Notes under the pieces: generated by a model
Told to the model about the DNA's origin: nothing
Databases searched by the model: none
What the model saw: the letters and a program-made list of their open reading frames with translations, nothing else
Assembly (NCBI GenBank): GCA_964106645.2
Contig: OZ067041.1
Reading direction: 5' to 3' (one strand)
Length of the DNA: 64,000 nt
DNA from: Podarcis pityusensis
Lineage: Eukaryota
Part shown: piece after piece, positions 12,211 to 57,427 of the stretch
How positions within the stretch are numbered: position 1 is the stretch's first letter
Layout of the letters: each line of letters opens with the position of its first letter
Position numbers and translations under genes: made by a program

Positions 12211-12563
12211 GACCCGGGTGGCGCTGTGGGTTAAACCACAGAGCCTAGGACTTGCCGATCAGAAGGTCGGCGGTTCGAATCCCCGCGACGGGGTGAGCTC
12301 CCGTTGCTCAGTCCCAGCTCCTGCCCACCTAGCAGTCTGAAAGCGCATCAAAGTGCAAGTAGATAAATAGGTACCGCTCCGGCGGGAAGGTAAACGGCGT
12401 TTCTGTGCACTGCTCTGGTTCGCCAGAAGTGGCTTAGTCATGCTGGCCACATGACCCGGAAGCTGTACGCCGGCTCCCTCGGCCAGTAAAGCAAGATGAG
12501 CACCGCAACCCCAGAGTCGGCCACGACTGGACTTAAGGGCCAGGGGTCCTTTTACCTTTACCT
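12211..12563 (+). mobile_element. Sauria SINE (Squam1-type), near full length
   Basis: GGTGGCGCTGTGGGTTAAA head, GGTTCGAATCCC B-box and (ACCTTT)n tail. 17-bp TSD TTAGTGC(G/T)CACCTGAGG. Confidence 0.92.
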
Positions 12564-14300: not shown

Positions 14301-14653
14301 TGGGGTGTGGGTGGCGCTGTGGGTTAAACCACAGAGCCTAGGGCTTGCTGATCGGAAGGTCGGCAGTTCGAATCCCCGCAACAGGGTGAACTCCTGTTGC
14401 TCGGTCCCTGCTCCTGCCAACCTAGCAGTTCTAAAGCATGTCAAAGTGCAAGTAGATAAATAGGTACCACTCCGGTGGGAAGATAAACGGCATTTCTGTG
14501 CACTGCTCTGGTTCGCCAGAAGCGGCTTAGTCATGCTGGCCACATGACCTGGAAGCTGTACGCCGGCTTCCTCAGCCAATAAAGCGAGATGAGTGCCACA
14601 ACCCTAGAGTTGGCCACGACTGGACCTAATGGTCAAGGGTCCCTTTACCTTTT
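14301..14653 (+). mobile_element. Sauria SINE
   Basis: Same body as the 12211 copy. Flanking AAAGGGTATA duplication. Confidence 0.9.
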
Positions 14654-15760: not shown

Positions 15761-16170
15761 AATCATAGAATTGTAGAATTGGAAGGGACCCCGAGTGTAA
15801 TCTAGTCCAACCCTCTGCAATGCAGGAATCTCAACTAAAGCATCCAAGACAGATGGCCACCCAACCTCTGCTTAAAAACCTCCAAGGAAGGAGAGTCCAC
15901 AACCTCCCGAAGGAGTCCATTCCACCGTCAAACAGCTCTTACTGTCAGAAAGTTCTTCTTGATGTTTAGCTGGAATCTCCTTTCTTGTAACTTGAAGCCA
16001 TTGGTTCGTGTCCTACCCTCCACAGCAGGAGAAACAAGCTCGCCCCCCTCTTCCATGTGACAGCCCTTGAGATATTTGAAGATGGCTATCATATCTCCTC
16101 TCAGTCTTCTCTTTTCCAGGCTGAACATACCCTGCTCCTTCAACCGCTCCTCATAAGGCTTGGTTTCCAG
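15761..16170 (-). mobile_element. CR1 LINE 3' fragment (ORF2 C-terminus and 3' UTR)
   Basis: FSLEKRRLRGDMIAIFKYLKGCH...RTRTNGFKLQERRFQLNIKKNFLTVRAV plus an ATTCTATGATT tail. Confidence 0.92.
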
Positions 16171-16203
16171 ACACCATCTACAACCACCTCACATATCATA
16201 GAG

Positions 16204-16652
16204 TCATGGAACTTTGAAGTGTCAGGCATAGCCCTATTGGCTTTAGCCCAAACGTAGCAGAGTTTTCCTGCACAGCGAGGAAGCTAGTTGCGGCGGTAAT
16301 GACTAGTCAGCTAGACTCAGAATAACTATTTACAGGATTTATTAAAAGGAAAAATAAAACCAGCAGAGTTTCTGCATACAAATCAAAGCAAAATAAATCC
16401 TTTCTTTCTCTCTCTCTCTCATAACCATACACAGCACTTCTAACTCCTTCTCCTAACACACCTAACACCAAACTGTGCTAGCATTCCCAGATAACAGAGT
16501 TGAGTGCTGGTCGTTAACCAATCAGAGTAAGTAGTTTCTAGGTCAAGCAGACCTTGGCTTTCTGCCAAGAGTAAATTGACACTGCCTTGAGTTAATTGTG
16601 TGAAGCCAGAATCTGCAAGTTCCCATGAGAATCAATTAACAGAAACTGAACA
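16204..16652 (-). repeat. 3' LTR of the copia element
   Basis: Direct repeat of 20927-21375. Minus-strand AATAAA at 16338-16343. Confidence 0.96.
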
Positions 16653-16659
16653 CCCCCTC
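16653..16659 (-). other. Polypurine tract of the copia element
   Basis: Minus strand GAGGGGG directly before the TGTTCAG start of the 3' LTR. Confidence 0.75.
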
Positions 16660-16706
16660 ACAGATTCTGCTGGACAATTAACATCAAATAACACCTATGT
16701 AGGAGA

Positions 16707-19700
16707 TTATTTTTCCAGCAAACCTAAACCCTTGCACATTTGCTTGTTCTTTATCTTTGCCAATGGTTTAGTTAATACATCTGCTACATTTTCTTCACTT
16801 GATACATAAGTACATATGATTATATTGTCTTGTACACAGCAACGTACATTTTGGTATTTTACAGAGATATGTTTGGAACGTGATTTGAAACCCTCTGTTT
16901 TACTTAAGGCTATACAAGCTTGATTATCAATGTAAACTTGTACTGGTTCTCCACAATTTACATTTAAATCTGCTAGCAAATGCTTGAAATAAATCACCTC
17001 GTTGCACAATTCACTCAATGCGGCGTACTCTGATTCCGTTGATGACACACTTACAACGTCTTGCTTGCGTGACCGCCAGCTGATTAAAGCTCCACCAACC
17101 ATTATGACTAGTCCTGTGACAGATTTTCTATCTGGCAAATTTCCCCAGTCACTATCACAGTAGCAACTCAACATTTCGTCCTCGGAAGAATTTAATTGTA
17201 ACAAATAGCCAATTGTCTGTTTGAGGTATCTCAGAACTTGTTTTACCCCTTTCCAGGCATTTAGTGTGGGTTTTGAGACCAATCTACTTAATATGCCTAC
17301 TGCGTAGCTAATATCAGGTCTGGACCACTGTGCTAGATATAATAAACTTCCAATTACAGAGTGATATACATCAGGATGTTCAAATTCAGGACTCTCATCT
17401 ATATGAAGTGTTTTTATGAAACCTGGATCCATAGGCACCGCTGCCCCTTTGCAATCCTGCATCCTGTATGTAGTCAGTAGCTGTTTAACTTTGTTCTGCT
17501 GACTAATTAGGCAGCTGCCATCTTGGGCCCAGCACACTTCCAACCCTAGATATGTCCTAACCGGGCCTAAGTCCTTCACTTTGAACTTACTGGACAATTG
17601 CTTGGCAAACCTTTTAGTTTGTTTATCTGTTTTGCAGGCATACAATACATCATCTACATAAATCAGACAAAACTCTTGATCACTGCCTGTACCACGTACA
17701 TAAACACAATTGTCAGCTGTACTCTGCTTAAAACCAAATGACACTAAGGCCTCATGGAAACATTTGTTCCAAGATCTTGCAGCCTGTTTGAGACCATATA
17801 GAGCTTTGTTTAATTTCAACACTCTATTGGAACCTGTCTCATAACCAGGCGGTTCGGCTAGATACAGGTCTTCTGATATTGATGCATGTAAATATGCAGT
17901 CTGGATATCAAAATGGTTTAACAGGAGTTTTCTCTTTGCTCCAAGTGTTAGAATCAGCCTTACACTGTCCCCCTTAGCAGTAGGGGAAAAAGTTTCGTCA
18001 TAATCTTTTCCAGGCCTCTGAGAATATCCTTGAGCCACTAAACGAGCTTTGTATTTGTACTTTCCTGTCACCAGAGGTTTAAGTTTGTACACCCACCTGC
18101 AGCCTACAATCTTTGCCCCCTCAGGCGCTGCTACTGGTGTAAAAACCTTGTGCTCATTCAGAGAGGACATCTCTTCCTCCATTGCCTGTTTCCAGAGCTC
18201 TGCCTCCTCTTTTGGTAACTTTAACACCTCCTGAAAACTCTTGGGCTCTGCAATTACACTAAACACATTTGCAGTATCTGGAGAAAAACGCACCGGAGGC
18301 ACTCCTTTGTTTTGTCTTTTAGATCTTCTGGGAGAAAATTTTTCTTCTGACCCACTTTCCTCCTCAGAACTACGACCTCTCTTTTGCTGCTTAGCAACTG
18401 GTCTCTGGCTAACTCCACTTTCTTGAGAGCTCTTATCTGAACTTTCCTCCCCCTCAGACTTTGATTCTCTGTGTCTACCTTCAGAGTCATGGAGCTCCTG
18501 GGAAGGTTCAAACCAAACCTCAGTATTGGCATGTAGTCTCTCCCAGCCACTATGTTCACAAAAACTGGCATTCCTGGAGATCACAATGCCATTTGTCCCT
18601 TCAGCAAAGCGGAAACCTTTTCCCAGCTCCTGGTAACCCACAAACACTAACTGTTTGGTCTTAGGATCTCCCTTCTTTCTCATTTGTTTCGGAATTAATA
18701 CCCAGGCTTTTGATCCAAACACATGCAAATGGTCAATTTTAGGTTTTTTCTGAAACAATTTAAAGTACGGGGTTGTACCTATTGTTTGATGAAAGAGCCT
18801 ATTTTGGAGATAACACGCGGTGAGCATACTCTCCCCCCAATAAGACATGGGCAAATCAGCATCATCAAGCATGGCAAACATCATATCTTGTAAAGATCTG
18901 TTTTTTCGCTCTGCAACGCCATTCTCCTCTGGGGAAAAAACGTTTGTTTTTCTATGCCCAATGCCACGCTTTTGTAACCAATCTCTAAAGGCATTTGACA
19001 TAAATTCGCCACCTCTGTCCGTCTGAATCCTTCTGAGTTTAATGGACAGAAATCTTTCCACAGATGCCACCCAGCCTTTAAACTTAGTGAACACGTCACC
19101 CTTATTTTTCATGGGAAAAACCCAAGAGTAACGTGTGGCGTCATCCACAATTGTTAGTGAAAAACGCGCTCCACCCCTGCTTACAGCAAATGGACCAATT
19201 ACGTCCATGTGAACCAGCTGTAGCGGTGACTCACTAACTCTGTCACTTCTGGGGTAAGAGACTCTGTGGGTTTTAACCTTTTTACAAACATTACAATCAA
19301 GGTACTTGTTACAACTCTTTAAATTACCCCCATCAGCCAATTCAGACATTTTTAGTACACTTTTCCAGCAAGCATGCCCCATTTTCCTATGCAATAAGTG
19401 CACACAGTTGTCATGTATAGCTTTGTTATTCACTGCAGGCTGAGATTTACTGACTACTGCTGCAACTTGAGATCCTGCTTTAAGCCAAAACAAGCCTCCC
19501 TCTGACTTAGCAGTGCCTAAAATCTCACCAGCCTTCTTAATAATGCAACTGTCTCCTTCAAAATACACTTTAAACCCAGCTTTTAGCAAACAATCTACAG
19601 ACATCAGATTGCTCCTTAATGAAGGCACACAAAGTACATTTTGCAGGCATTCACGAAGACAAGGAACAAAAACTGCACCCCCCGAAATCACTTCGGAAGT

Positions 19701-20669
19701 ACTTCCGTCTGCTAGAGCCACCTGGCTGCGCTGTGCTGAGTTCTTGGAAACAAACAATTCATCTGAATTTACGATGTGCCGAGACGCTCCAGAATCGACC
19801 ACCCAGACAGCTTGTTTCTCATCAGCAATCTTGACCTCGGCGGTCACCAGCTGAGCCGACTGTTTTTGTTTGAAGAATTTCTTTTTACGCTGCTGCTGCT
19901 GCTGATCTCGTCTCTGCTCCTGCACCGGCAACTGAGACTTGACCAACTCCGGACATTGTCGTTTTAGATGCGCTGAAGACCCACATCGGAAACAACGCCT
20001 AACAGCAAACGCTGACTCCTCACCAGTACGCTGCTTTTGCTTCACCTCTGGCACGGCATGAGAACTCCTTCCAAACCGTCCACCTGTAGAAGCCTCTGCA
20101 GCCAACGACCTTTCTTGCCTCTTCTGCCATTCTTCAATCAAACGCCCAGTAACGTAACTGACTGATAAATCACGCTCCTGTATGCCTTCTAGAGACAAAA
20201 CTAAATTATCCCAGCTTTCCGGGAGAGAACTCAAAATAATAGCCACCTTCTCCTGCTGGTCTAACGCACAGTCTCTTTCCTGTAGCGCAGCGAACTTTAA
20301 CTGTAAACTGTGTAGGTGTTCCTGCATTGTAACCCCAGGCTGTAACATTGCCTTGTACAATGCCTTGCGAATGAACAGCTTGGAAACCGTTGTCTCACGC
20401 ACATGGAGTTCTTTAAGTGCTTGCCACACACCTCTAGCTGTCTTGATTCCCCTCACATACGGCAACTGGGAATCTTCCAGCCCCAAGACAATTGTGGCCC
20501 TTGCTCTTTGGTCTTTATCGAGGTCTTCATCATCAGGCTTCGCAGGAAACTTACTCACCACTTGCCAGAGACGATCCCTCTGCAGCACTGCCTGCATGCG
20601 TTCCGACCACAGCAAGTAATTGGAGTCATTCAGACGCTCAAAAACCATCTGAACTGGTTGTGAGGCCAT
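16707..20669 (-). CDS. Ty1/copia Gag-Pol polyprotein, 1320 aa
   Basis: Gag N-terminus FERLNDSNYLLW; zinc knuckle CFRCGSSAHLKRQC; protease WVVDSGASRH; integrase HHCC and DDE (LVHMDVIGP, TDRGGEF, NGVAERKN); RT (YKARLVAQG, LYGLKQAARSW, YVDD); RNase H (CDSDW, ESEY, IDNQ, ADVLTK). No stops or frameshifts. Confidence 0.97.
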   Translation of the reverse strand: MASQPVQMVFERLNDSNYLLWSERMQAVLQRDRLWQVVSKFPAKPDDEDLDKDQRARATIVLGLEDSQLPYVRGIKTARGVWQALKELHVRETTVSKLFIRKALYKAMLQPGVTMQEHLHSLQLKFAALQERDCALDQQEKVAIILSSLPESWDNLVLSLEGIQERDLSVSYVTGRLIEEWQKRQERSLAAEASTGGRFGRSSHAVPEVKQKQRTGEESAFAVRRCFRCGSSAHLKRQCPELVKSQLPVQEQRRDQQQQQRKKKFFKQKQSAQLVTAEVKIADEKQAVWVVDSGASRHIVNSDELFVSKNSAQRSQVALADGSTSEVISGGAVFVPCLRECLQNVLCVPSLRSNLMSVDCLLKAGFKVYFEGDSCIIKKAGEILGTAKSEGGLFWLKAGSQVAAVVSKSQPAVNNKAIHDNCVHLLHRKMGHACWKSVLKMSELADGGNLKSCNKYLDCNVCKKVKTHRVSYPRSDRVSESPLQLVHMDVIGPFAVSRGGARFSLTIVDDATRYSWVFPMKNKGDVFTKFKGWVASVERFLSIKLRRIQTDRGGEFMSNAFRDWLQKRGIGHRKTNVFSPEENGVAERKNRSLQDMMFAMLDDADLPMSYWGESMLTACYLQNRLFHQTIGTTPYFKLFQKKPKIDHLHVFGSKAWVLIPKQMRKKGDPKTKQLVFVGYQELGKGFRFAEGTNGIVISRNASFCEHSGWERLHANTEVWFEPSQELHDSEGRHRESKSEGEESSDKSSQESGVSQRPVAKQQKRGRSSEEESGSEEKFSPRRSKRQNKGVPPVRFSPDTANVFSVIAEPKSFQEVLKLPKEEAELWKQAMEEEMSSLNEHKVFTPVAAPEGAKIVGCRWVYKLKPLVTGKYKYKARLVAQGYSQRPGKDYDETFSPTAKGDSVRLILTLGAKRKLLLNHFDIQTAYLHASISEDLYLAEPPGYETGSNRVLKLNKALYGLKQAARSWNKCFHEALVSFGFKQSTADNCVYVRGTGSDQEFCLIYVDDVLYACKTDKQTKRFAKQLSSKFKVKDLGPVRTYLGLEVCWAQDGSCLISQQNKVKQLLTTYRMQDCKGAAVPMDPGFIKTLHIDESPEFEHPDVYHSVIGSLLYLAQWSRPDISYAVGILSRLVSKPTLNAWKGVKQVLRYLKQTIGYLLQLNSSEDEMLSCYCDSDWGNLPDRKSVTGLVIMVGGALISWRSRKQDVVSVSSTESEYAALSELCNEVIYFKHLLADLNVNCGEPVQVYIDNQACIALSKTEGFKSRSKHISVKYQNVRCCVQDNIIICTYVSSEENVADVLTKPLAKIKNKQMCKGLGLLEK

Positions 20670-20902
20670 CTTGAGAGCGATGTCCCTGGAACCCGGAACC
20701 AGCTACTCACGACCACCGAGAGAGAAAACAGGAACCACAGCACCCAGCACTCACACGCTGCAGCTGTTGTCCTTGTGTCCACTGCGTCACCAGCTCACCA
20801 CAGTCAGGAACCAGCCAGTGTCCATCTGCTGCACCAACAGGAACAACAACTTCTGGAACTACTGGAACCAACACCGTTGATGCTGACACCACCACAACTC
20901 AG

Positions 20903-20926
20903 GCTGGCAGCACAATGCCCATAACC
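20903..20926 (-). other. Primer binding site complementary to the anticodon region of initiator tRNA-Met (half-tRNA type)
   Basis: Minus strand GGTTATGGGC directly after the 5' LTR, then a 9-nt insert, then CCAGC. Drosophila copia has GGTTATGGGCCCAG. Confidence 0.8.
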
Positions 20927-21375
20927 TCATGGAACTTTGAAGTGTCAGGCATAGCCCTATTGGCTTTAGCCCAAACGTAGCAGAGTTTTCCTGCACAGCG
21001 AGGAAGCTAGTTGCGGCGGTAATGACTAGTCAGCTAGACTCAGAATAACTATTTACAGGATTTATTAAAAGGAAAAATAAAACCAGCAGAGTTTCTGCAT
21101 ACAAATCAAAGCAAAATAAATCCTTTCTTTCTCTCTCTCTCTCATAACCATACACAGCACTTCTAACTCCTTCTCCTAACACACCTAACACCAAACTGTG
21201 CTAGCATTCCCAGATAACAGAGTTGAGTGCTGGTCGTTAACCAATCAGAGTAAGTAGTTTCTAGGTCAAGCAGACCTTGGCTTTCTGCCAAGAGTAAATT
21301 GACACTGCCTTGAGTTAATTGTGTGAAGCCAGAATCTGCAAGTTCCCATGAGAATCAATTAACAGAAACTGAACA
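20927..21375 (-). repeat. 5' LTR of the copia element
   Basis: Matches 16204-16652 and is followed by the PBS. Confidence 0.96.
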
Positions 21376-23027
21376 TAGAGTAGAATTGTGCCCATGTTTA
21401 AATAAATAAATACGTCAAATCTTTCCCTTCTACTGCCAGGTGCAAAGCATTCTTCAGAGTTGTCTGCTCCATACTTTCAGTATAGGTTGCAGAAGGAAAT
21501 ATATATGAGATCCACCAGTACTTTGAACAGTATATTATGAAGAAATTGCAGTGATACTGAGGAAGCAGAAATCAAGGGGAAAGTAGCCTTAAGCTCAGCG
21601 ATGTTTAGCTAGACCTTAGCCAGACACTCTGTGCCTGATTCATTGACCCCGCTCCAATCTGTGATGGTCACCACTTGAAAATCAAATCTGGAAGGGCTAT
21701 TTCTGTTTCCAATAGATGATTCATGCCTTTATATTCAAACTCATTCTAATTAATGCTCAAGACTGAATAAAATTACCATAGCATATGAGTGTCTGAAAAA
21801 TGATATTATATAGTTTGATAGCCAATTTAACATTTGCTCCATATTATAAATTGATGCGGCATTCTGGCATCTGACAAACCACCACTACCAGGTTTTTAAA
21901 ACAATTTCTGAAAAATTGAATTAAACAGTATTCCTTTTATTAAAAAAATGCAAAAGCAGGCCACTTTTCCTACTGAAGTGTCTAGAAAAAAGGACTCTCC
22001 TGATTGCAATACTATCTTCTCCACTAATGCAGAGAATATTTGAAATGTTTTAAAATTAGCTATCATTTCTTTATTGCACTCCTGGTTCTGAACTCAAGAG
22101 CTCCAAGACTCAGTTTCTCTAAGTCTCAGTTAGTTTTAGAAAATGCCTCTTCCAATCCTTTCCCCAGCCCAGTCCATTAGACTAATGAAACAGAAATGAT
22201 CTTGTATCTGTTTTCTTAGGTAAATCAAAGCCATAATTGGTGATAATTCCTTATCCCCTAAATTGATTGTTTTGCTTTTTAATTACATAAAATGTATATA
22301 CCTCTTGGTTGTAGAAAGGCAAAACAAAACTTCTCAACATGGCTTGGGTAGATTTTCTGGTTGGCTGACTGGAATTTTTATCACATAGCCATCAATCCTG
22401 AATGCCTTTACTAGGGAGTAAGCCCCACAGAACAGAATGGGACTTGATTTTCAGTAAACATATATTGGATTGCACAGCAAACTGTGTACTTGGACCATCT
22501 AAATTAAATTTGATTGGATTTACCAAGTTACACTTGGGACTACGTAAATCTGCCCTCTGTTTGTCAATACTACTAGAACCTTGAAAGATAATATCCGTGT
22601 AACAATCAATAAAACTCAATGATTCGATTCCTTCTGAAGCCGTGAAGGGCATCCCTGTCCGAGTCAAAATAGACCGTAACAGTTTTAACTGTATTAAGTG
22701 AGAAATTCAATTTACCATTAGAAGGAGCTATAAGGCACTTTCTTGACTGCGTAGATCAAGGAAGTTGGTCATAGCTAGAGATGAGAAAAGGGCAAATGAT
22801 CACAAGCTGAATAAATGATTCCTTCTGTCTCTGGATTTTTTTGAATAACTTTTGTATCAAGCTGCTATTACAGTAAGAATGCCCTGGATACCATGAGTAT
22901 CCAAAGTAAGGGTGCTTCTTGATGGCACACATAAACACAACCCACAACCCCCACAGTCTTGGTTAATCCTTGTCCACCTAGGGATGGTGGATAAATTAAA
23001 TTCAGTTCAATTTTAAAGGTGAACTTA

Positions 23028-26801: not shown

Positions 26802-26897
26802 TTTGTTGTTGTTGTTTAGTCGTTTAGTCGTGTCCGACTCTTCGTGACCCCATGGACCAGAGCACGCCAGGCACTCCTGTCTTCCACTGCCTCCCAC
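26802..26897 (-). mobile_element. Bov-B LINE extreme 3' fragment
   Basis: GGGGTCACGAAGAGTCGGACACGACTAAACGACTAAACAACAAC tail on the minus strand. 11-bp TSD TTGTTGTGCTT. Confidence 0.88.
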
Positions 26898-27352: not shown

Positions 27353-27791
27353 TACTGGTTTTCCCAGTAGGGATGTATGGAAGTGAGAGCTGGACCATAA
27401 ACAAGGCTGATCACTGAAGAATTGATGCTTTTGAATTATGGTGCTGGAGGAGACTCTTGAGAGTCCCATGGACTGCAAGAAGATCAAACCTATCCATTCT
27501 GAAGGAAATCAGCCCTGAGTGCTCACTGGAAGGACAGATCCTGAAGCTGAGGCTCCAGTACTTTGGCCACCTCATGAGAAAAGAAGACTCCCTGGAAAAG
27601 ACCCTGATGTTGGGAAAGATGGAGGGCACAAGGAGAAGGGGACGACAGAGGACGAGATGGTTGGACAGTGTTCTTGAAGCTACCAGCATGAGTTTGACCA
27701 AACTGCGGGAGGCAGTGGAAGACAGGAGTGCCTGGCATGCTCTGGTCCATGGGGTCACGAAGAGTCGGACACAACTAAACGACTAAACAAC
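27353..27791 (+). mobile_element. 5'-truncated Bov-B (RTE) LINE
   Basis: RVPWTARRSNLSILKEISPECSLEGQILKLRLQYFGHLMR...VHGVTKSRTQLND. 11-bp TSD AAGGTAAAGGC. Confidence 0.93.
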
Positions 27792-30774
27792 AAGGTAAAG
27801 GCACATATAGTGGGAAAAGTAGGAGAGCCTCAGGGGCATGAGGGGTTCATAACTTTTACCCTCCCCCTTGACCAAGTGAGTGACATTTATTCTTATAACT
27901 CAGCAAACTGTCTTCCCTTTGGCATAGCCGGTGTTTAGGATTGCTTTGCCCAAGTGCATGCAATTACTTCCTCAAAGACATTTGCCACAGCAGTAACATG
28001 CAGGACAAAGAACTGCAATTGGCCACGGAAGGAGCACACCATGAGAAGCTCTGCATGACATTAAGGAAAGTTAATTGAGAGGCACACTTTGCACTTAGTT
28101 CTCGCTCTGGGAAGAAATGAAAAGCTATAATTGCTGAACTCCTCAAGCCCTTTGTGAAGGACTATAGAATCAGGCATCAGGTGGCTTCCAAATAAGACCG
28201 GCTGGGACAAACAGAAAGTATCATGAAAAGATTAAAACAAAATGTAATAGCAAACATGGTTTGTGTGGACAGAAAGAGAAATGACTCCTAATTAAATGAA
28301 TCATTTCTTTGGAAATGTCACAACACAGAAAAAACTATTCACAGTCCTCCAGAAATTAAGCCTATTGACATGAATAGCAGCAGTTGCACAATAACACAAC
28401 TCTCCCATTCATTTCAACAATGAGAGAAATATCTCAATGGCTCATCCCTTCCTCCCTGTGAACTCCATGGGACTTGCTTCAGAGTGATGGCATGTGGATT
28501 AGCCTCTCACCTGTGTCTTTGAGTAGTTCACTTAAGGATGCAGTGGAGAGTCAATATGCCTCTCATGCAGAACAGCATCTGACATTTCAGCCAATTTTTT
28601 TTTATTTATTTTTTTGCCTGCACTGTGCAGGCAAAATGTAACCAGACATTATTCAATCAAGGTGTGCGAATGAACAAGAGAATTTATTTTCAGATTATAA
28701 AAATGGTAAACCATGCGAATTTGTAGACTTCTAATAAGGGGTGTTGTAGAACCCACCTCAAAGGGGCCAGAAACTAAGGGCAGAGTAGAGCAGAGTGAGG
28801 GGATTAAATTCAGTTTGCATTTAAAGGCAAACCTACCAAAATCACACATTGATTTTGGAACCCTACATGAATGCAAGCACAGTCATCCTGTGAAATTTAA
28901 CTAGGCAGGCCATTTGTCTAATACAGGAGGACTTTTCTTCATTTTAAACTGAATCTCTCCAAAATTCTAACCAATTTTGACAACCCAGTCAATAATAAAA
29001 TTATAGAAGATCTAACAGATGTGGCAACCCAGTCCTAATCTTTTAGGATGGGTTGCACCACCACTGAGGTCAGAGGTGGGGAATCTATGGTCCTCCAGAT
29101 GCTGTTGGACTACAATTCCCATCAGCCCTAGTCAGCATGGTCAATGATCAGGGATGATGGGAGTTGGAGTCCAAAAATATAGAGAGGGCCACCCCATTAT
29201 ATATATGCTACATAGCAATACAGCTGAGGAGCCCCACTGAAGCCAATAGGCCAACCCAATTAGCTGGGCCAAACCTGCACAGATTCAAAGTCCAGTGCTT
29301 CTCTTTAGCACTGCCACATTTTAGACAATGCAATGGCAGTTTGGAGACTTCCTTTGTCTCTTCCAACTTTGGGCGTCAATTTTATCCCTGTTTTCCTCAC
29401 TTTTATTCAGGCAGTGCATGCTCTGCTTAAGCCTCTCCCTACCTCCCTCCCTCTCCTGTTTTAAGATTAGCAGCCTGCCATGAGATTGCCATTAATCTGT
29501 CTGATGCTTTTTGGAATGTCAAATGAGAGGTGGCAGTACAGCTTCCACTAAAGACAGAGAGAGACTTCACAGCCTCTAGCGCTGTCTGTATTTTACACAG
29601 ACAATTACCATCTATGGGAAACAGGCCTTTTGACAGTCAAAAAATCTGAAACCTGCATAGCGAAGCTTGGAAGCAGTAGCTGTGATATTGAGAAGAGGGA
29701 AATCAGAGCACAAAACTTGACCCAGATTGTCTCATGGAGATCAGTTAATCCCTACTGTATTTCTTCACGGCACACAGAAAGGAGACCAGCAGCATCACTA
29801 AAACATTTCGAGATTAAAGTTAGTACTTACCTGTACATTATGATGAAACTGAGTTGTCCATGCCTGGTTTGGACAATACTCTTGAGTTCATGACGGACAC
29901 AAACATGACGTTTGTTAGGTCTCAGGTACTTAACAATTTTCCATTTCAAACTGGTCAAAGCTGCTCAGGATCTGGTTCAGTTTTCCCAGAGTGGAGCACA
30001 GTGTTACTCAGGGAGTGGCTGTCACCAAAAACCCTGTGTTGTGTTCTTCCCCAACATATGACAATGCATAACTTTGTGTCAAGGGCATAATATTTTTTCG
30101 GAGGTTGCGTGCCACCCCCAATCTCTGCTGAGAAGTAGCATGATTCCTGGGGGTTCCAGGCACTCACCCAGGGTTGTGTTTCCGTCAGGAAAATCAAGGA
30201 GCAGTCAAGGCTAGTGTCGTTAAGAAATAGGTTTTACTTTACACCTAAAGTCTACAATGGAGACGGTGCAGAACATTATACCCTAACGGTGTCTCTCATC
30301 ATCCCTGGCAGAGCTTTAGCAAGCTCACGTTCAAAGCTGCAGTCATGGCTCTCACTCTCTTGCTGCCGCCTCCTCCAGTTAGAGTCAAGATGGTTCTGCC
30401 TACTTCCTCCTTCTTGTTCCCAGAACACCTTTAACCTTTCAAAAGGGACACATTTTCCTGTGACACCACGTCCCCCTCAATTGCCTTGGCAACCTTCCAA
30501 ATCTCTTTTCTTTGTCCATTCCTTGGAGGGGGCGGGGAGGAAGGATAGCTTTTTTGTATTGCCAATGACCTTCATTTTGTATTGCCAATGGTTCCTCATT
30601 ATTTCTCAACAGCTCTGCACTCAAGCTAGCCCAGGCAGGCTGGTTTGCATATGCTAACGTAGGAATTTCTTCTCTGGCACAGTTCTGCCATTTGTATTTC
30701 CCCATCATATCCCAAATATTATCTAAATGCTGCCGTTTATTAATTTCATCAATAGATTCTGGTACCCCAGATGA

Positions 30775-31155
30775 CAGGGACGCGGGTGGCGCTGTGGTCT
30801 AAACTACTGAGCCTCTTGGGCTTGCCGATCGGAAGGTTTGTGGTTCAATACCCACAATGGGGTGAGCTCCTGTTGCTCTGTCCCAGCTCCTACCAACCTA
30901 GCAGTTCAAAAGCATGCCAATGCAAGTAGATAAATAGGTACTGCTGGGACGGGAAGGTAAACAGCGTTTCTGTGCACTCTGGTTTCCGTCACGGTGTCCC
31001 TTTGCACTAGAAGCGGTTTAGACATGCTGATCACATGACTCGGAAAGCTGTCTGTGGACAAATGCTGGCTCCTTCGGCCTGAAAGCAAGATGACCGCCGC
31101 AACCCCATAGTCGCCTTTGACTGGACTTAACCTTCCGGGGTCCTTTACCTTTACC
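30775..31155 (+). mobile_element. Sauria SINE
   Basis: Typical head and ACCTTT tail. 12-bp TSD TACCCCAGATGA. Confidence 0.9.
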
Positions 31156-31369
31156 TACCCCAGATGATCTATGAAAATATCATTGGGACTCTCCCCAATC
31201 CTGCACTGATATAACTGGTATGTTGGTGTTTTAGGAACTACACATGCTCCTGCTGTAGTTAGGTTGTGCTGACTGGAGATCAATATCACCCACAAGGGGC
31301 ACATGGGGCAGATTCTCACTTCAAAGTAATTGCTGAATGCAATTCTGAATGGACAAGATATGCAACAGA

Positions 31370-31580
31370 ACCAGTGTGGTGGTTAGAGTGTTAAGAGTAG
31401 GTAACTGGGAGACCAGGGATCAAATTCCCACTCAGCCATAAATCTCACTGGGTGACCTGGAGTCAGTCACAGTCTCTCAAACTAACCTTCCTCACAGAGT
31501 TGTTAAATAAAAATGAGAGGGGTGAAGAACTGTGTACACCACCTTAAGGTCCTTGGAGGAAAAGGGGAATATAAATGTCA
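31370..31580 (+). mobile_element. Old tRNA-derived CORE/Squam3-like SINE
   Basis: GTGGTTAGAGTG...CTGGGAGACCAGGG...CACTGGGTGACCT...CTCACAGAGTTGTT body. Confidence 0.6.
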
Positions 31581-32107
31581 GTATAAACAACAGGTGTTTC
31601 AAACTTAAGCAACAGAGGAAGAGTCACATTCTTAGAGGATGTAATGACCTATCTTCCGATATCTTCCCAGTCCTTTAAGAAGACTGGGACAACTAGCAGA
31701 TTCATAATTCTGAAGAGACTGGGGAAAAATACTAATACTCCATTATTCTAAGATTAAGAACCTGTCCTTTACAACCACAACTCTTCCATCATACATCTAG
31801 AAACCTAAAGGATGTCTACCTGTGCTAGCCTGATGCCGGTCCCTTTTAGCAGAGGCCACCTCAAGCAGAAGTCATCTGCATAACTGCACAAATAGAGCAC
31901 TGAAAAAGCGATTTTGATCCTTCCTTATTCCTTTGTTCATGCATTCTCTCTGCACCACCACCCTGACTTCAGATTCCTTCAGGGAAGGAGGATACACAAG
32001 ACAAACACCACCATGGGACGGTTCGTCAGAATCCAGGCTCTGACATGACACTGACATACACCTGGAATCACCCATAAAGTGCATCCTATCTACAACTTCA
32101 CATCATA

Positions 32108-36789: not shown

Positions 36790-37128
36790 CGTTAAAGGTA
36801 AAGGGACCCCTGACCATTAGGTCCAGTTGTGACCAACTCTGGGGTTGTGGCGCTCATCTCGCTTTATTGGCCGAGGGAGCTGGCGTACAGCTTCTTGGTC
36901 ATGTGGCCAACATGACTAAGCCGCTTCTGGTGAACCAGAGCAGCGCACGGAAACACCGTTTACCTTCCCGACGGAGCAGTACCTATTTATCTACTTGCAC
37001 TTTGACGTGCTTTCGAACTGCTAGGTTGGCAGGAGCAGGGACCGAGCAACGGGAGCTCACCCCGTGGTGGGGATTCGAACCACCAACCTTCTGATCAGCA
37101 AGTCCTAGGCTCTGTGGTTTAACCCACA
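36790..37128 (-). mobile_element. Sauria SINE
   Basis: Reverse-complement copy with 9-bp TSD GTTCCCAGG. Confidence 0.9.
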
Positions 37129-37189
37129 GTTCCCAGGTGTTATCTGATCTCAATTCTGCCCCTGTACCCATTTCCCATTCTTCACATAC

Positions 37190-42562: not shown

Positions 42563-42918
42563 GTTAAAACGATCTAATTTCTGACTTAATCATAGCACGT
42601 TCTTTTCCCTGTGTTTAGATCCACCCTCAGTCATGCGTTTAGAAAGTGCGGAAAGGGAACTTGAACGCGTACCAATGTATGCACACAGAGCTGCTTGAAA
42701 CAAGGATCCTTCCTCCTTTGCAATGGCTCTTATGCAGACACATTCTCAAACCCACTGAATGCACAGCCAACAGTGGATACGTAAGAGGGAAGAACTTCAG
42801 CATTCGGTACAAGTTTCCAAGTCTCACATACAGCATTTGTGTTAAGTCTGTAATAGTAGGTTGCCTGCATTGGGAGGGGGTTGGACTATGGGTAACTTTT
42901 AAGGTTGCTTCCAGTTCT

Positions 42919-43801
42919 TGTTAGTTTCTGTTTATGCCACTGTGCAGTGCTTGGAGTCACAAGACTCTGTTTTGCATTCCAGAGATTCCATGTACAACCA
43001 GGGTCTATTTGATTGGTCGTGCAAGAAGCAAACAACAGTAAGCTTAAGTTCTTGTGAAGCTGAACTGAATGCACTATCTTATTCACTTGTGGATTGTGAA
43101 TGGTTGTTACAATTGTGTAGAGACATGAGAATTCCTGTAAAGTGTCCAATCCAGGTTTATCAGGACAACAAAGCATGTTTGGCTTTGCTGACTTTTGAAG
43201 GGTGTAAGCAAAGCACAAAGCACTTGCAATTGAAGCTGCAACATGCTAGAGAATGTGTCCAGAAAGGACTCGTAACGGTGTCCTATATGCCAGGTAATGA
43301 AATTCCTGCTGATTTATTGTCCAAGGTTGTTCCAAGGGATCAACACTGTACCTATGTACAGAAACTGGGTTTGTACTGAGATTGTACTGACACACTGCCC
43401 AGTGGTGTTCACAGAAAGGGGGAGGATGTTAGTTTCTGTTTAAGCCACTGTGCAGTGCTTGGAGTCACAAGACTCTGTTTTGCATTCCAGAGATTCCAGG
43501 CTGTTGGAAGTCTCACGGAAGACAGGAGATGGATGTGATGTTACTGGTTTCCTGTTCCTTTGTTTTTTGGTTGCTCTCTGCTTTCACAGAGAAAGCATGT
43601 ATATTTCTTTTCTGTCTGCGTAGTTAGAAATGAAACCTAGCAATGTAGCTCAAACCTCTCATCTCTTCTGCTGTGTTTGATACTCTGATGAATGGAGAAC
43701 ATCTCTGCAGCCTTATCAAAGGTTCAGGTTGTTAATCATCGTCGGAGGAGATTCCGAAGGCTCGACTGGAGGAGTAGCTCTGTCGAACACAAGTTCCGAC
43801 A
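42919..43801 (+). mobile_element. Internally deleted Ty1/copia element (72-bp 5' LTR stub, RNase H, PPT, 375-bp 3' LTR)
   Basis: 42919-42990 matches 43427-43498 with one mismatch. PPT AGAAAGGGGGAGGA at 43413-43426, LTR ends CA at 43801, 5-bp TSD GTTCT. Confidence 0.9.
42990..43379 (+). pseudogene. Copia RNase H domain fragment (open frame, first catalytic Asp deleted)
   Basis: WSCKKQTTVSLSSCEAEL...VYQDNKAC...TKHL...YMPGNEIPADLLSK. Confidence 0.85.
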
Positions 43802-45748: not shown

Positions 45749-46183
45749 ACAGCATCTTAAAAAGCAGAGACATCACCTTGTTGACAAAGGTCCGTATAGT
45801 TAAAGCTATGGAAGTGAGAGCTGGACCATAAAGAAGGCTAATCGCGGAAGAATTGATGCTTTTGAATTATGGTGCTGGAGGAGACTCTTGAGAGTCCCAT
45901 GGACTGCAAGAAGATCAAACCGATCCATTCTTAAGGAAATCAGCCCTGAGTGCTCACTGGAAGGACAGATCCTGAAGCTGAGGCCCCAATACTTTGGCCA
46001 CCTCATGAGAAGAGAAGACTCTCTGGAAAACCCTGATGTTGGGAAGGATGGAGGGCACAAGGAGAAGGGGACGACAGCTACCAGCATGAGTTTGACCAAA
46101 CTGTGGGAGGCAGTGGAAGACAGGAGTGCCTGGTGTGCTCTGGCCCATGGGGTCAAGAAGAGTCGGACACGACTAAACAACAA
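45749..46183 (+). mobile_element. 5'-truncated Bov-B LINE with internal deletions
   Basis: Same peptide as the 27353 copy. 11-bp TSD AGATCTTTTAG. Confidence 0.92.
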
Positions 46184-47600
46184 AGATCTTTTAGCCATCT
46201 GTACAAACAACAGCAATGGTGCAACTCTACCCACAAGCTTAACAATACCAACTTTCCAGCTTTTTTTGATAGCTTACATTAATTCAGCATTAGGTCTGAA
46301 CAGATAGGCAACTGATAAGCTCAGCCATAAAAGGTTACTATTTCTCTTTCAGCATTAATAGGCCATCTCCTCAGTGCTTTTTAAAAAATCAGATTTGTCC
46401 AGATTTGTCCAAAGATTTAAATTCCAAGAAAACAGCATTGCATTCACTAATATACAAAGGAAATGTACCTTGCCAAACATCTTTTTCTAACATCAAGTCA
46501 TGTTGAGTATAGCTCCTGTTTAGGGTGTGTGCACAAAATAAGTTAAGTAAACATTTAGGCAAGACAAATAAAAAACGGGGGGAGGGGGGGACAAGCCATT
46601 GTTTGAAACATTTCATTTCTATCCTGAGCTCAACACCATTTCTGAATGACACCTGCATTTCTACCACTCAGTCCTGAAGCTTTGCAGCTGCAGATTAGCA
46701 ATTACTGAAGATGGGGCTCTGATTAGGCTGCTAATGCAGGTTGTCTCAGGATAAGTGATTGCACGGTGTTAATCACATCGCAGTCAGTAGCATATGTTGG
46801 CATGTCAGGACAGCAGGAGGGAAACACACCAGAAGGAACTGGTAAAGTGCAGAAATGTTTCTGCTCCTGCAGAGCGGAGGAATGAACTGGTGGGTTAGAG
46901 GAAGATTATCAACAGCTACCGTACTCACTTAATGGACGCTTCCTATTTTTATTAGGATATATCAAAGATTTTAGAGATTCAAGGGCACCGGATATTATCT
47001 TCAATCATTATTATTAAGCCAGCTCCCCCCCCCCAGCCCTTTTTACAAGCACCATTCACGGTGAGCCATACTAGCATGAAACAACTTTTCAGTGGCAGAG
47101 TTGAAATGCAGAATTAGAAAGGATCTCCTCTGCCTGTGGGGCAGGACACACACAGTCATTCCAAGGCATCATGTGGATATTTGTTATGCAGAGGCTGACA
47201 GGGAGGGGGGTGCCTGTGGGGAACTGACCCACATGTCAGAAGACTGGTAAGGCATGATGCACGCCAGAGAGGATCAAGGACAGAGGGGCTGTGAGGTGAC
47301 CAAGATGCTGCTGTGTAGCTGTGTCCTTACAGGGAGGAGACATCTTGCAGTCATGCTTTGTGAAATTTAGGTGGCTGTGTTGAGGGACCGAAACCCAAAA
47401 GGGAAGCCTCAGGGAAGTGACTGACTACAGAGCTGACTCTGGGTGGTCTCTACAGCTGTCTGATGTTTGTGATGGTCCCTAGTATCCCTCTAGGTCCTTT
47501 CCTCAGTCTGACACCTCTCCTTTATTAATTGTATACCATTTTTCCTTGAAGGACAGGGCTGTGCCCCAAAATGCCCTCTCTCAGCTCTTAAGAGCCAGTA

Positions 47601-55986: not shown

Positions 55987-56138
55987 GCCTGGATAGCTCA
56001 GCTGGTTAGAGCGTGGTGCTGATAACGCCAAGGCTGGAAGTTCGATCCCCATGCAGGACAGCTGCATATTCCTGCACTGCAGAAGGTTGGACTAGGTGAT
56101 TCTCAGGATTCCTTCCAACTCTACAACTCTATGATTCT
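55987..56138 (+). mobile_element. tRNA-Ile-derived SINE with CR1-type tail
   Basis: GCCTGGATAGCTCAGCTGGTTAGAGCGTGGTGCTGATAACGCCAAGG...GTTCGATCCCC followed by CTTCCAACTCTACAACTCTATGATTCT. Confidence 0.82.
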
Positions 56139-56558: not shown

Positions 56559-56778
56559 GAGAGAAGACTCCCTGGAAAAGACCCTGATGTTGGGAAGGAT
56601 GGAGGGCACAAGGAGAAGGGGACGACAGAGGACAAGATGGTTGGACAGTGTTCTCGAAGCCACCAACATGAGTTTGACCAAACTGCGGGAGGCAGTGGAA
56701 GACAGGAGTGCCTGGCGTGCTCTGGTCCATGGGGTCACGAAGAGTCAGACACGACTAAACGACTAAACAACAACAACA
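56559..56778 (+). mobile_element. Bov-B LINE 3' fragment
   Basis: GAAGACTCCCTGGAAAAGACCCTGATG...CACGACTAAACGACTAAACAACAACAAC. Confidence 0.9.
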
Positions 56779-57427
56779 AACCTAATAGAATGTCACAAAT
56801 GCAGCATAAATCACACAAATCAATTAACCAATCATCAGTAAAAACTATTATAATCTACAAAACACTAATAACAAAAAAGGAACTTAAAAATAAGCTGAAC
56901 ATCACAATTACAGCAAAATCAATACGGCGTTTATAATCAATAAAACATTAACAACTTTAGCTAAATAGCAACTAAAGAAATAAGCTAAGCGCTGCTAAGG
57001 TGGTTGTTCTTTAAAGCACTTTAGAAACCACAATGAAGCCTCAAGAATTCAGGGATCCCACAGAGCTCAGTCTCTTTTCCAGGCTGGCTCACCAAGCGCA
57101 AAATGTTGGCGTGCCAGTGGCTTCACATGCAACCTAAGTGATCTGTGACCCAGAGTCAGTATTTGAAAAACAAGATGTTAGTACACTGCCACCTATTGGT
57201 AAAAAAGGGAGGAAATGCAATTAAAGGAATCCTGGACTGGGAAAAGTGAACAACAACAGGGGAGGGGGGGTGTTGACTACAAAAAGGTTTGTGAGAAACT
57301 GTAGAATTGTGAGGGTGTGAGGGCAGAGGTGAACTTCACTGGTGGAGATGCAAAACTCACTAGCGCTCCCCCCAGCTTATCTCTAGTAGCCAGGGGGCAA
57401 CCATTCCCCCCACAGAATGGCCCTTGA

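Follow-up and report, generated by a model that had tools for sequence, protein, structure and literature searches.

A copia element with TG…GA termini

The window, by which we mean the whole 64-kb stretch of Podarcis pityusensis DNA analysed here, carries a young and intact copia retrotransposon on its minus strand (16204-21375). Read along the element strand, a target-site duplication (TSD; 21376..21380, TAGAG on the plus strand) precedes a 449-bp 5' LTR (20927..21375), a primer-binding site (PBS; 20917..20926) that abuts this LTR with zero spacer, a single uninterrupted gag-pol ORF (16707..20702, 1331 codons from stop to stop, first ATG at 20669), a polypurine tract (PPT) GAGGGGG (16653..16659) placed without spacer before the 3' LTR, the 449-bp 3' LTR itself (16204..16652, with AATAAA at LTR position 310) and the second copy of the TSD (16199..16203, again TAGAG on the plus strand). 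The domains follow the copia order Gag-PR-IN-RT-RH, with integrase before RT, and Pfam assigns copia gag to residues 36-199 of the ORF, Pol_BBD to 300-377, rve to 492-588 and RVT_2 to 852-1091; the integrase region (18555..19415, minus strand) comprises an HHCC motif, a DDE core and an SH3-like domain. The element therefore has the two direct LTRs, PBS, PPT and 5-bp TSD of Ty1/copia (Pseudoviridae) elements, but lacks the TG…CA termini that are usual, though not obligatory, in that group: both LTRs are TG…GA and adjoin the 5-bp TSD, as in TGGA copia elements.

The two LTRs are identical at 449 of 449 positions at an offset of 4723 (16204-16652 versus 20927-21375), and identity stops sharply at 16203/20926 on one side and at 16653/21376 on the other. 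On the element strand both begin with TGTTCAG and end with TTCCATGA, so that the non-canonical GA of the 3' LTR (16204..16205), the U5 end, is joined to host DNA. The TAGAG match has a chance of ~1.0e-3 at one fixed register. The PBS reads GGTTATGGGC, a motif that is likely of the tRNA-iMet anticodon-arm (half-tRNA) type; motif and zero spacer agree with those of 17 comparator loci (see below). It retains 10 nt only of the 14-nt motif usual among those loci, and our literature search returned no match for the PBS motif in connection with copia.

Placing the LTR end

We scanned the LTR boundaries for TSDs. No TG-starting parse had its end at the internal CA, an end that yields no TSD and leaves TGA inside the LTR-LTR identity, in agreement with the initial annotation, which had argued that such an end destroys the TSD. 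The same annotation held the boundary to be fixed twice over, by TSD and PBS; both do abut the GA end, but a second TG-starting parse, with a 6-bp TSD (TAGAGT) and TG…TG ends, shifts the boundary by one base. Taken by themselves, TSD and PBS are thus ambiguous by 1 nt, which was settled by comparators.

The comparators came from an alignment-based scan of prokaryotic assemblies that yielded 78 loci with distant copia relatives, 21-50% identical in their best segments and evidently on eukaryotic contaminant contigs and used as an outgroup only. The same PBS type occurs in 17 of the 78, and in all 17 an A directly precedes the PBS, the last two bases being CA in 13, TA in three, AA in one and GA in none (second-last base C 13, T 3, A 1). 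The six complete comparators with both LTRs and flanks are all TG…CA with matching flanking 5-mers; for one of them, inserted in an AT repeat, the match extends over 8 bases. LTRs apparently ending in TA (three) or AA (one) were seen at L019:4494, L025:3162, L054:1628 and L038:5497; each of these loci has a PPT, a TG LTR start, a PBS and long ORFs, and they have no TSD because their contigs appear collapsed and circularly permuted. Repeat-induced mutation was considered for the TA ends and set aside, the TpA/ApT ratio being 0.50-0.76 in the three TA loci, in which long ORFs remain. As to the provenance of the set, most likely eukaryotic contamination explains the copia-type proteins of L001-L078 within prokaryotic assemblies; some of them sit on long sequences, L001 and L016 sharing a 2.77-Mb contig and L062 and L066 a 6.65-Mb record labelled chromosome, so that the assemblies concerned may be chimeric or mis-binned. 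A direct protein query for close relatives in prokaryotic assembly contigs confirmed none of 137 pattern matches.

The A before the PBS in 17/17 comparators and the 5-bp TSDs in 6/6 argue that the LTR ends at the base preceding the PBS, and the terminal A adjoining the PBS is present in both LTRs of the element. Were the boundary off by one, the LTR would end in TG, the TSD would be 6 bp long and the A before the PBS would be a chance spacer; although the TSD scan does return this parse, it requires a 1-in-4 chance match and a spacer found at 0/17 loci with the same PBS type, its TSD length departs from the 5-bp duplication of all complete comparators and it does away with the 3' A used in joining, all of which makes it very improbable. 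The GA ends might also be ascribed to faulty assembly, or to gene conversion after a mutation in one of the LTRs, as collapse or conversion can yield 100% identical LTRs; yet each GA lies in its own unique junction, one on the TSD side and one on the PBS side, and because the ORF is intact and the LTRs differ at 0 of 449 positions there was little time for two rare post-insertion events, so that we find this origin scarcely credible. The TG…GA ends reported for both LTRs in the initial annotation are thus real, given the 449/449 identity, the TAGAG duplication, the abutting PBS and the comparator register, and the placement of the LTR end at the A of GA is well supported.

The window holds a second copia insertion, E2 (42919..43801, plus strand), which we traced from a tblastn match at 42990-43373. 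E2 is an internally deleted element of another family, with TG…CA ends and a 5-bp TSD (GTTCT). What is left of it is a 5' LTR stub of 72 bp, a remnant of RNase H, a PPT and a 3' LTR of 375 bp, the deletion running from LTR position 72 to the RNase H domain. Its LTR starts with TGTTAGTTTCTGTT and ends with AAGTTCCGACA, compared with TGTTCAGTTTCTGTT and AAGTTCCATGA in the main element. The heptamer AAGTTCC lies at an equal distance from the LTR end in both (chance ~7e-5 at one register), and this shared register places the GA of the main element where E2 has CA. Because E2 can also be parsed with a 7-bp TSD and a GA end, the argument from register presupposes the usual TSD length of 5 bp. We also considered whether 3 nt had been inserted after an ancestral CA, in place of a substitution; the ungapped register with E2 favours substitution, though not decisively.

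Despite their alike LTR ends, the two elements share only 36% identity in RNase H. We examined E2 as a sister family and rejected this placement: the main element ranks 25th of 160 for E2's RNase H, and E2 forms a long unplaced branch in an RNase H tree of 51 rows (the 45 best RNase H matches, E2 and a few matches close to E2, with no identified Mtanga reference among them). Both insertions lie at or next to repeats (15761-16180 and 42880-42918) that resemble what we take to be CR1-type LINE 3' ends, a proximity that probably reflects repeat density.

Integrase and the origin of the GA end

When LTR retroelements replicate, the parent's 5' LTR serves once as template for U5, which is copied to both daughter LTRs, and the GA in both LTRs is for this reason one fact and not two. 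The clean TSD implies that an integrase has joined a GA end at least once, unless that end arose by post-insertion change, which is unlikely with 0/449 differences. The earlier proposal that the integrase must accept a GA end consequently holds for U5 and not for both ends, as U3 is canonical. In the scheme that we envisage, a tRNA-iMet fragment would prime directly at the LTR edge and, because no spacer intervenes, a blunt cDNA would result, as in Ty1, with no dinucleotide to be trimmed; the integrase would then join U3 by its canonical CA-3'OH and U5 by its GA-3'OH, with a 5-bp stagger. Constraint on U5 may fall mainly on the terminal A and the subterminal bases, leaving the second-last base free to drift.

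The best solved relatives of the integrase are a 635-aa integrase (7z0h_W), which we take to be that of Ty1, and the PFV integrase. Element residues 591-595 align to PFV Pro214-Gly218. This PFV segment wedges at the viral DNA end (PMC6784120). Among 261 aligned homologues, the end-contact segment is conserved at P591 (252), N594 (259) and G595 (249), as is the next helix at E598 (256), R599 (253) and R602 (241), whereas E592 is common to 53 of the 261 and E593 to 10 only. Unusual residues are found at F609 (0/261), F637 (0/259) and S625 (4/261); at 609 and 637 the closest homologues (45-50% identical) likewise lack the common residue, which looks like lineage divergence. The comparison of end-contacting integrase residues suggested by the initial annotation thus uncovered a conserved segment but no evident specialisation: no unique signature was found at the end-contact segment across the 261 homologues, and an ordinary integrase tolerating GA is likely the simplest reading of these alignments. 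Experiments reported for Ty1 bear on such tolerance, since its integrase joins blunt cDNA and is relaxed in vitro, and in yku70 yeast cells it inserted DNA with C/GA-3' ends and generated 5-bp TSDs; AC ends, by contrast, cut its activity in vitro more than 100-fold (PMC2939329).

We favour, with a probability of roughly 0.7, the reading that in the family, or in a subfamily of it, the second-last base of U5 has changed from C to G, a change probably tolerated by an ordinary copia integrase. This reading generalises from one copy, and none of the 17 comparator ends is GA; that Ty1 strongly disfavours some altered ends, and that the element integrase has a few unusual residues, also counts against simple tolerance. 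The family might instead end in CA, with this copy or its donor having gained the C-to-G change and passed through one leaky integration, the altered base having been the second one made in minus-strand priming, or having arisen in the donor's 5' LTR, before being copied to both LTRs. LTR identity cannot separate such a private mutation from a family trait, GA is acceptable to Ty1 integrase, and E2, the six complete comparators and the corn-snake copia (see below) all end in CA; a one-off error at a given base is rare, however, altered ends would presumably be selected against, and the non-CA ends in 4/17 comparator loci and in whole plant families shift the prior towards a family or subfamily trait, so that we regard a private change, by either route, as unlikely.

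A family fixed for GA could also have an integrase whose specificity has shifted to prefer GA. The deviating F609, S625 and F637 lie near or after the helix with the catalytic Glu, and the element's end differs from that of E2 at three of the last four bases, as might be expected of co-adaptation; but the closest homologues share the deviation at 609 and 637 as part of lineage divergence, the end-contact segment is conserved and the same enzyme still joins a canonical CA at U3, and we accordingly consider a switched specificity quite improbable. A wider reading joins several of these strands: this would be the first amniote LTR-retrotransposon family fixed for TG…GA, half-tRNA-primed copia elements would be asymmetric, with U3 remaining TG and U5 needing a terminal A only (CA, TA, AA or GA), and the integrase would be in the early stages of adapting to GA, by changes close to the catalytic helix. 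We put this forward as speculative and give it, taken as a whole, an outside chance.

Relatives, precedents and other features of the window

The best full-length homologue of the gag-pol protein is 44% identical over residues 480-1000, and no integrase above 51% identity appears among the 150 representatives listed. Close relatives of Gag are found in Podarcis lilfordi, where a short predicted protein is 97% identical over its 72 residues and a 230-residue protein is identical at 210 of the 219 positions aligned without gaps. These two annotations of a near-identical Gag lie on separate P. lilfordi contigs, of 103 and 137 Mb; by them the family is multi-copy in that species, and they point to Podarcis or a closely related lacertid as the probable host of our element. 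By blastn, no second family copy or solo LTR is present in the 64-kb window; a motif-plus-TSD scan (150-700 bp) returned a single match, 31230-31592, in which no LTR features were seen on reading and which we took as chance.

Copia elements abound in squamates: in a survey by Klai et al. (2025), all 750 amniote copia elements analysed belong to the Mtanga clade, and P. muralis carries 1004 copia copies in 44 clusters (PMC11889832). Squamate Mtanga copia elements share the host group of our element, and from the host group only we infer that it may belong to this clade; the tuatara supplement (PMC7116210) contains no text on Mtanga. A literature search on copia in Podarcis led only to a paper on another lizard. 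A young squamate copia insertion with a 5-bp TSD has been described in the OCA2 gene of the corn snake; it resembles our element in these respects, but, judged by eye from Supplementary Data S2, it is TG…CA and has a PBS of a different type, TGGTAGCA after a 3-nt spacer (PMC4657000).

Drosophila copia and Ty5 are known to be primed from an internal part of tRNA-iMet (PMC10886601), and a truncated tRNA primer defines the Hemivirus group (PMC8515867). Elements of the Drosophila copia/Ty5 type share with ours a 5-bp TSD and, if our assignment of the PBS is right, an anticodon-arm PBS abutting the LTR, but they have CA ends and a 14-nt PBS motif where our element has GA and 10 nt. Ty1 resembles it in the 5-bp stagger and, if our scheme is correct, in the joining of blunt cDNA; its natural ends are TG…CA, and its tolerance of GA was seen with foreign DNA and is not a fixed trait (PMC2939329).

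The initial annotation had cited rice Tos17 as precedent, aptly so, and lotus copia elements with TGGA ends can be placed beside it. Non-TGCA elements, mostly copia, were reported in 42 of 50 plant genomes, and Tos17 ends in TG…GA (10.1101/137141). In lotus, 820 TGGA copia copies were described with a mean LTR of 266 bp and an internal region of 4384 bp (449 and 4274 bp in our element), and non-TGCA copia elements there mostly cluster with elements of other ends (PMC9804982), a pattern that to us speaks for recent changes that have occurred repeatedly and against integrases dedicated to one end. Tos17 and the lotus elements share with ours the TG…GA ends, the copia order, a short LTR and an internal region of ~4.3 kb; they differ in having a plant host rather than a lizard and show no sign of common descent with it, TGGA ends being not monophyletic even among plants (PMC9804982). 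Other ends also occur in animals: an annelid survey gives 89% TGCA alongside several other motifs (PMC8220671), and Drosophila errantiviruses have non-TG/CA ends (PMC3601003, PMC5408687).

The claim that no amniote example is known agrees with our search, which found no vertebrate report of TG…GA ends and, by title, no vertebrate non-TGCA study, although its coverage excluded Repbase Reports and most subscription journals and this is weak evidence of absence. What is new here is a TG…GA copia in a host group for which we found no report, such ends being already known in plants, and the element likely represents a modest extension of known variation and not a new mechanism. If GA proves family-wide, non-TGCA copia elements, catalogued mainly in plants, would extend to an active amniote family, and this family would be a natural test of whether copia integrase needs the terminal A, the second-last base or the subterminal bases, with CA-ended copia elements in the same genome allowing comparison.

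We could not uphold the statement that standard LTR finders would miss this family. The LTR_retriever motif library includes TGGA (10.1101/137141, PMC8220671), and a published LTRharvest pipeline used '-motif TGCA -motifmis 1' and was also run without a motif (PMC8220671); the LTRharvest settings listed in the squamate copia survey name no motif (PMC11889832). As TGGA is listed and common settings allow one mismatch, such finders need not miss the element, and the effect on annotation is small: strict zero-mismatch TGCA runs alone would lose it, while element boundaries in squamate repeat libraries might be misplaced by a few bases.

For plant non-TGCA copia elements, a trend towards genic or intron targeting has been reported. 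At the level of long ORFs we recognised no host gene in the window, 0/68 other long ORFs reaching a Pfam curated cut-off. A ~340-bp repeat, probably a SINE, is present in four copies that are 73-90% identical (12216-12560, 14309-14652, 30776-31156 and 36793-37129), and a further repeat family, whose copies are 79-99% identical to one another, lies at 26802-26897, 27376-27793, 45807-46184 and 56560-56780. A weak tRNA-like match at 55987-56059 on the plus strand (tRNA-Ile by ARAGORN, 33.9 bits in Rfam) overlaps a dispersed repeat and is probably a repeat-derived pseudo-tRNA.
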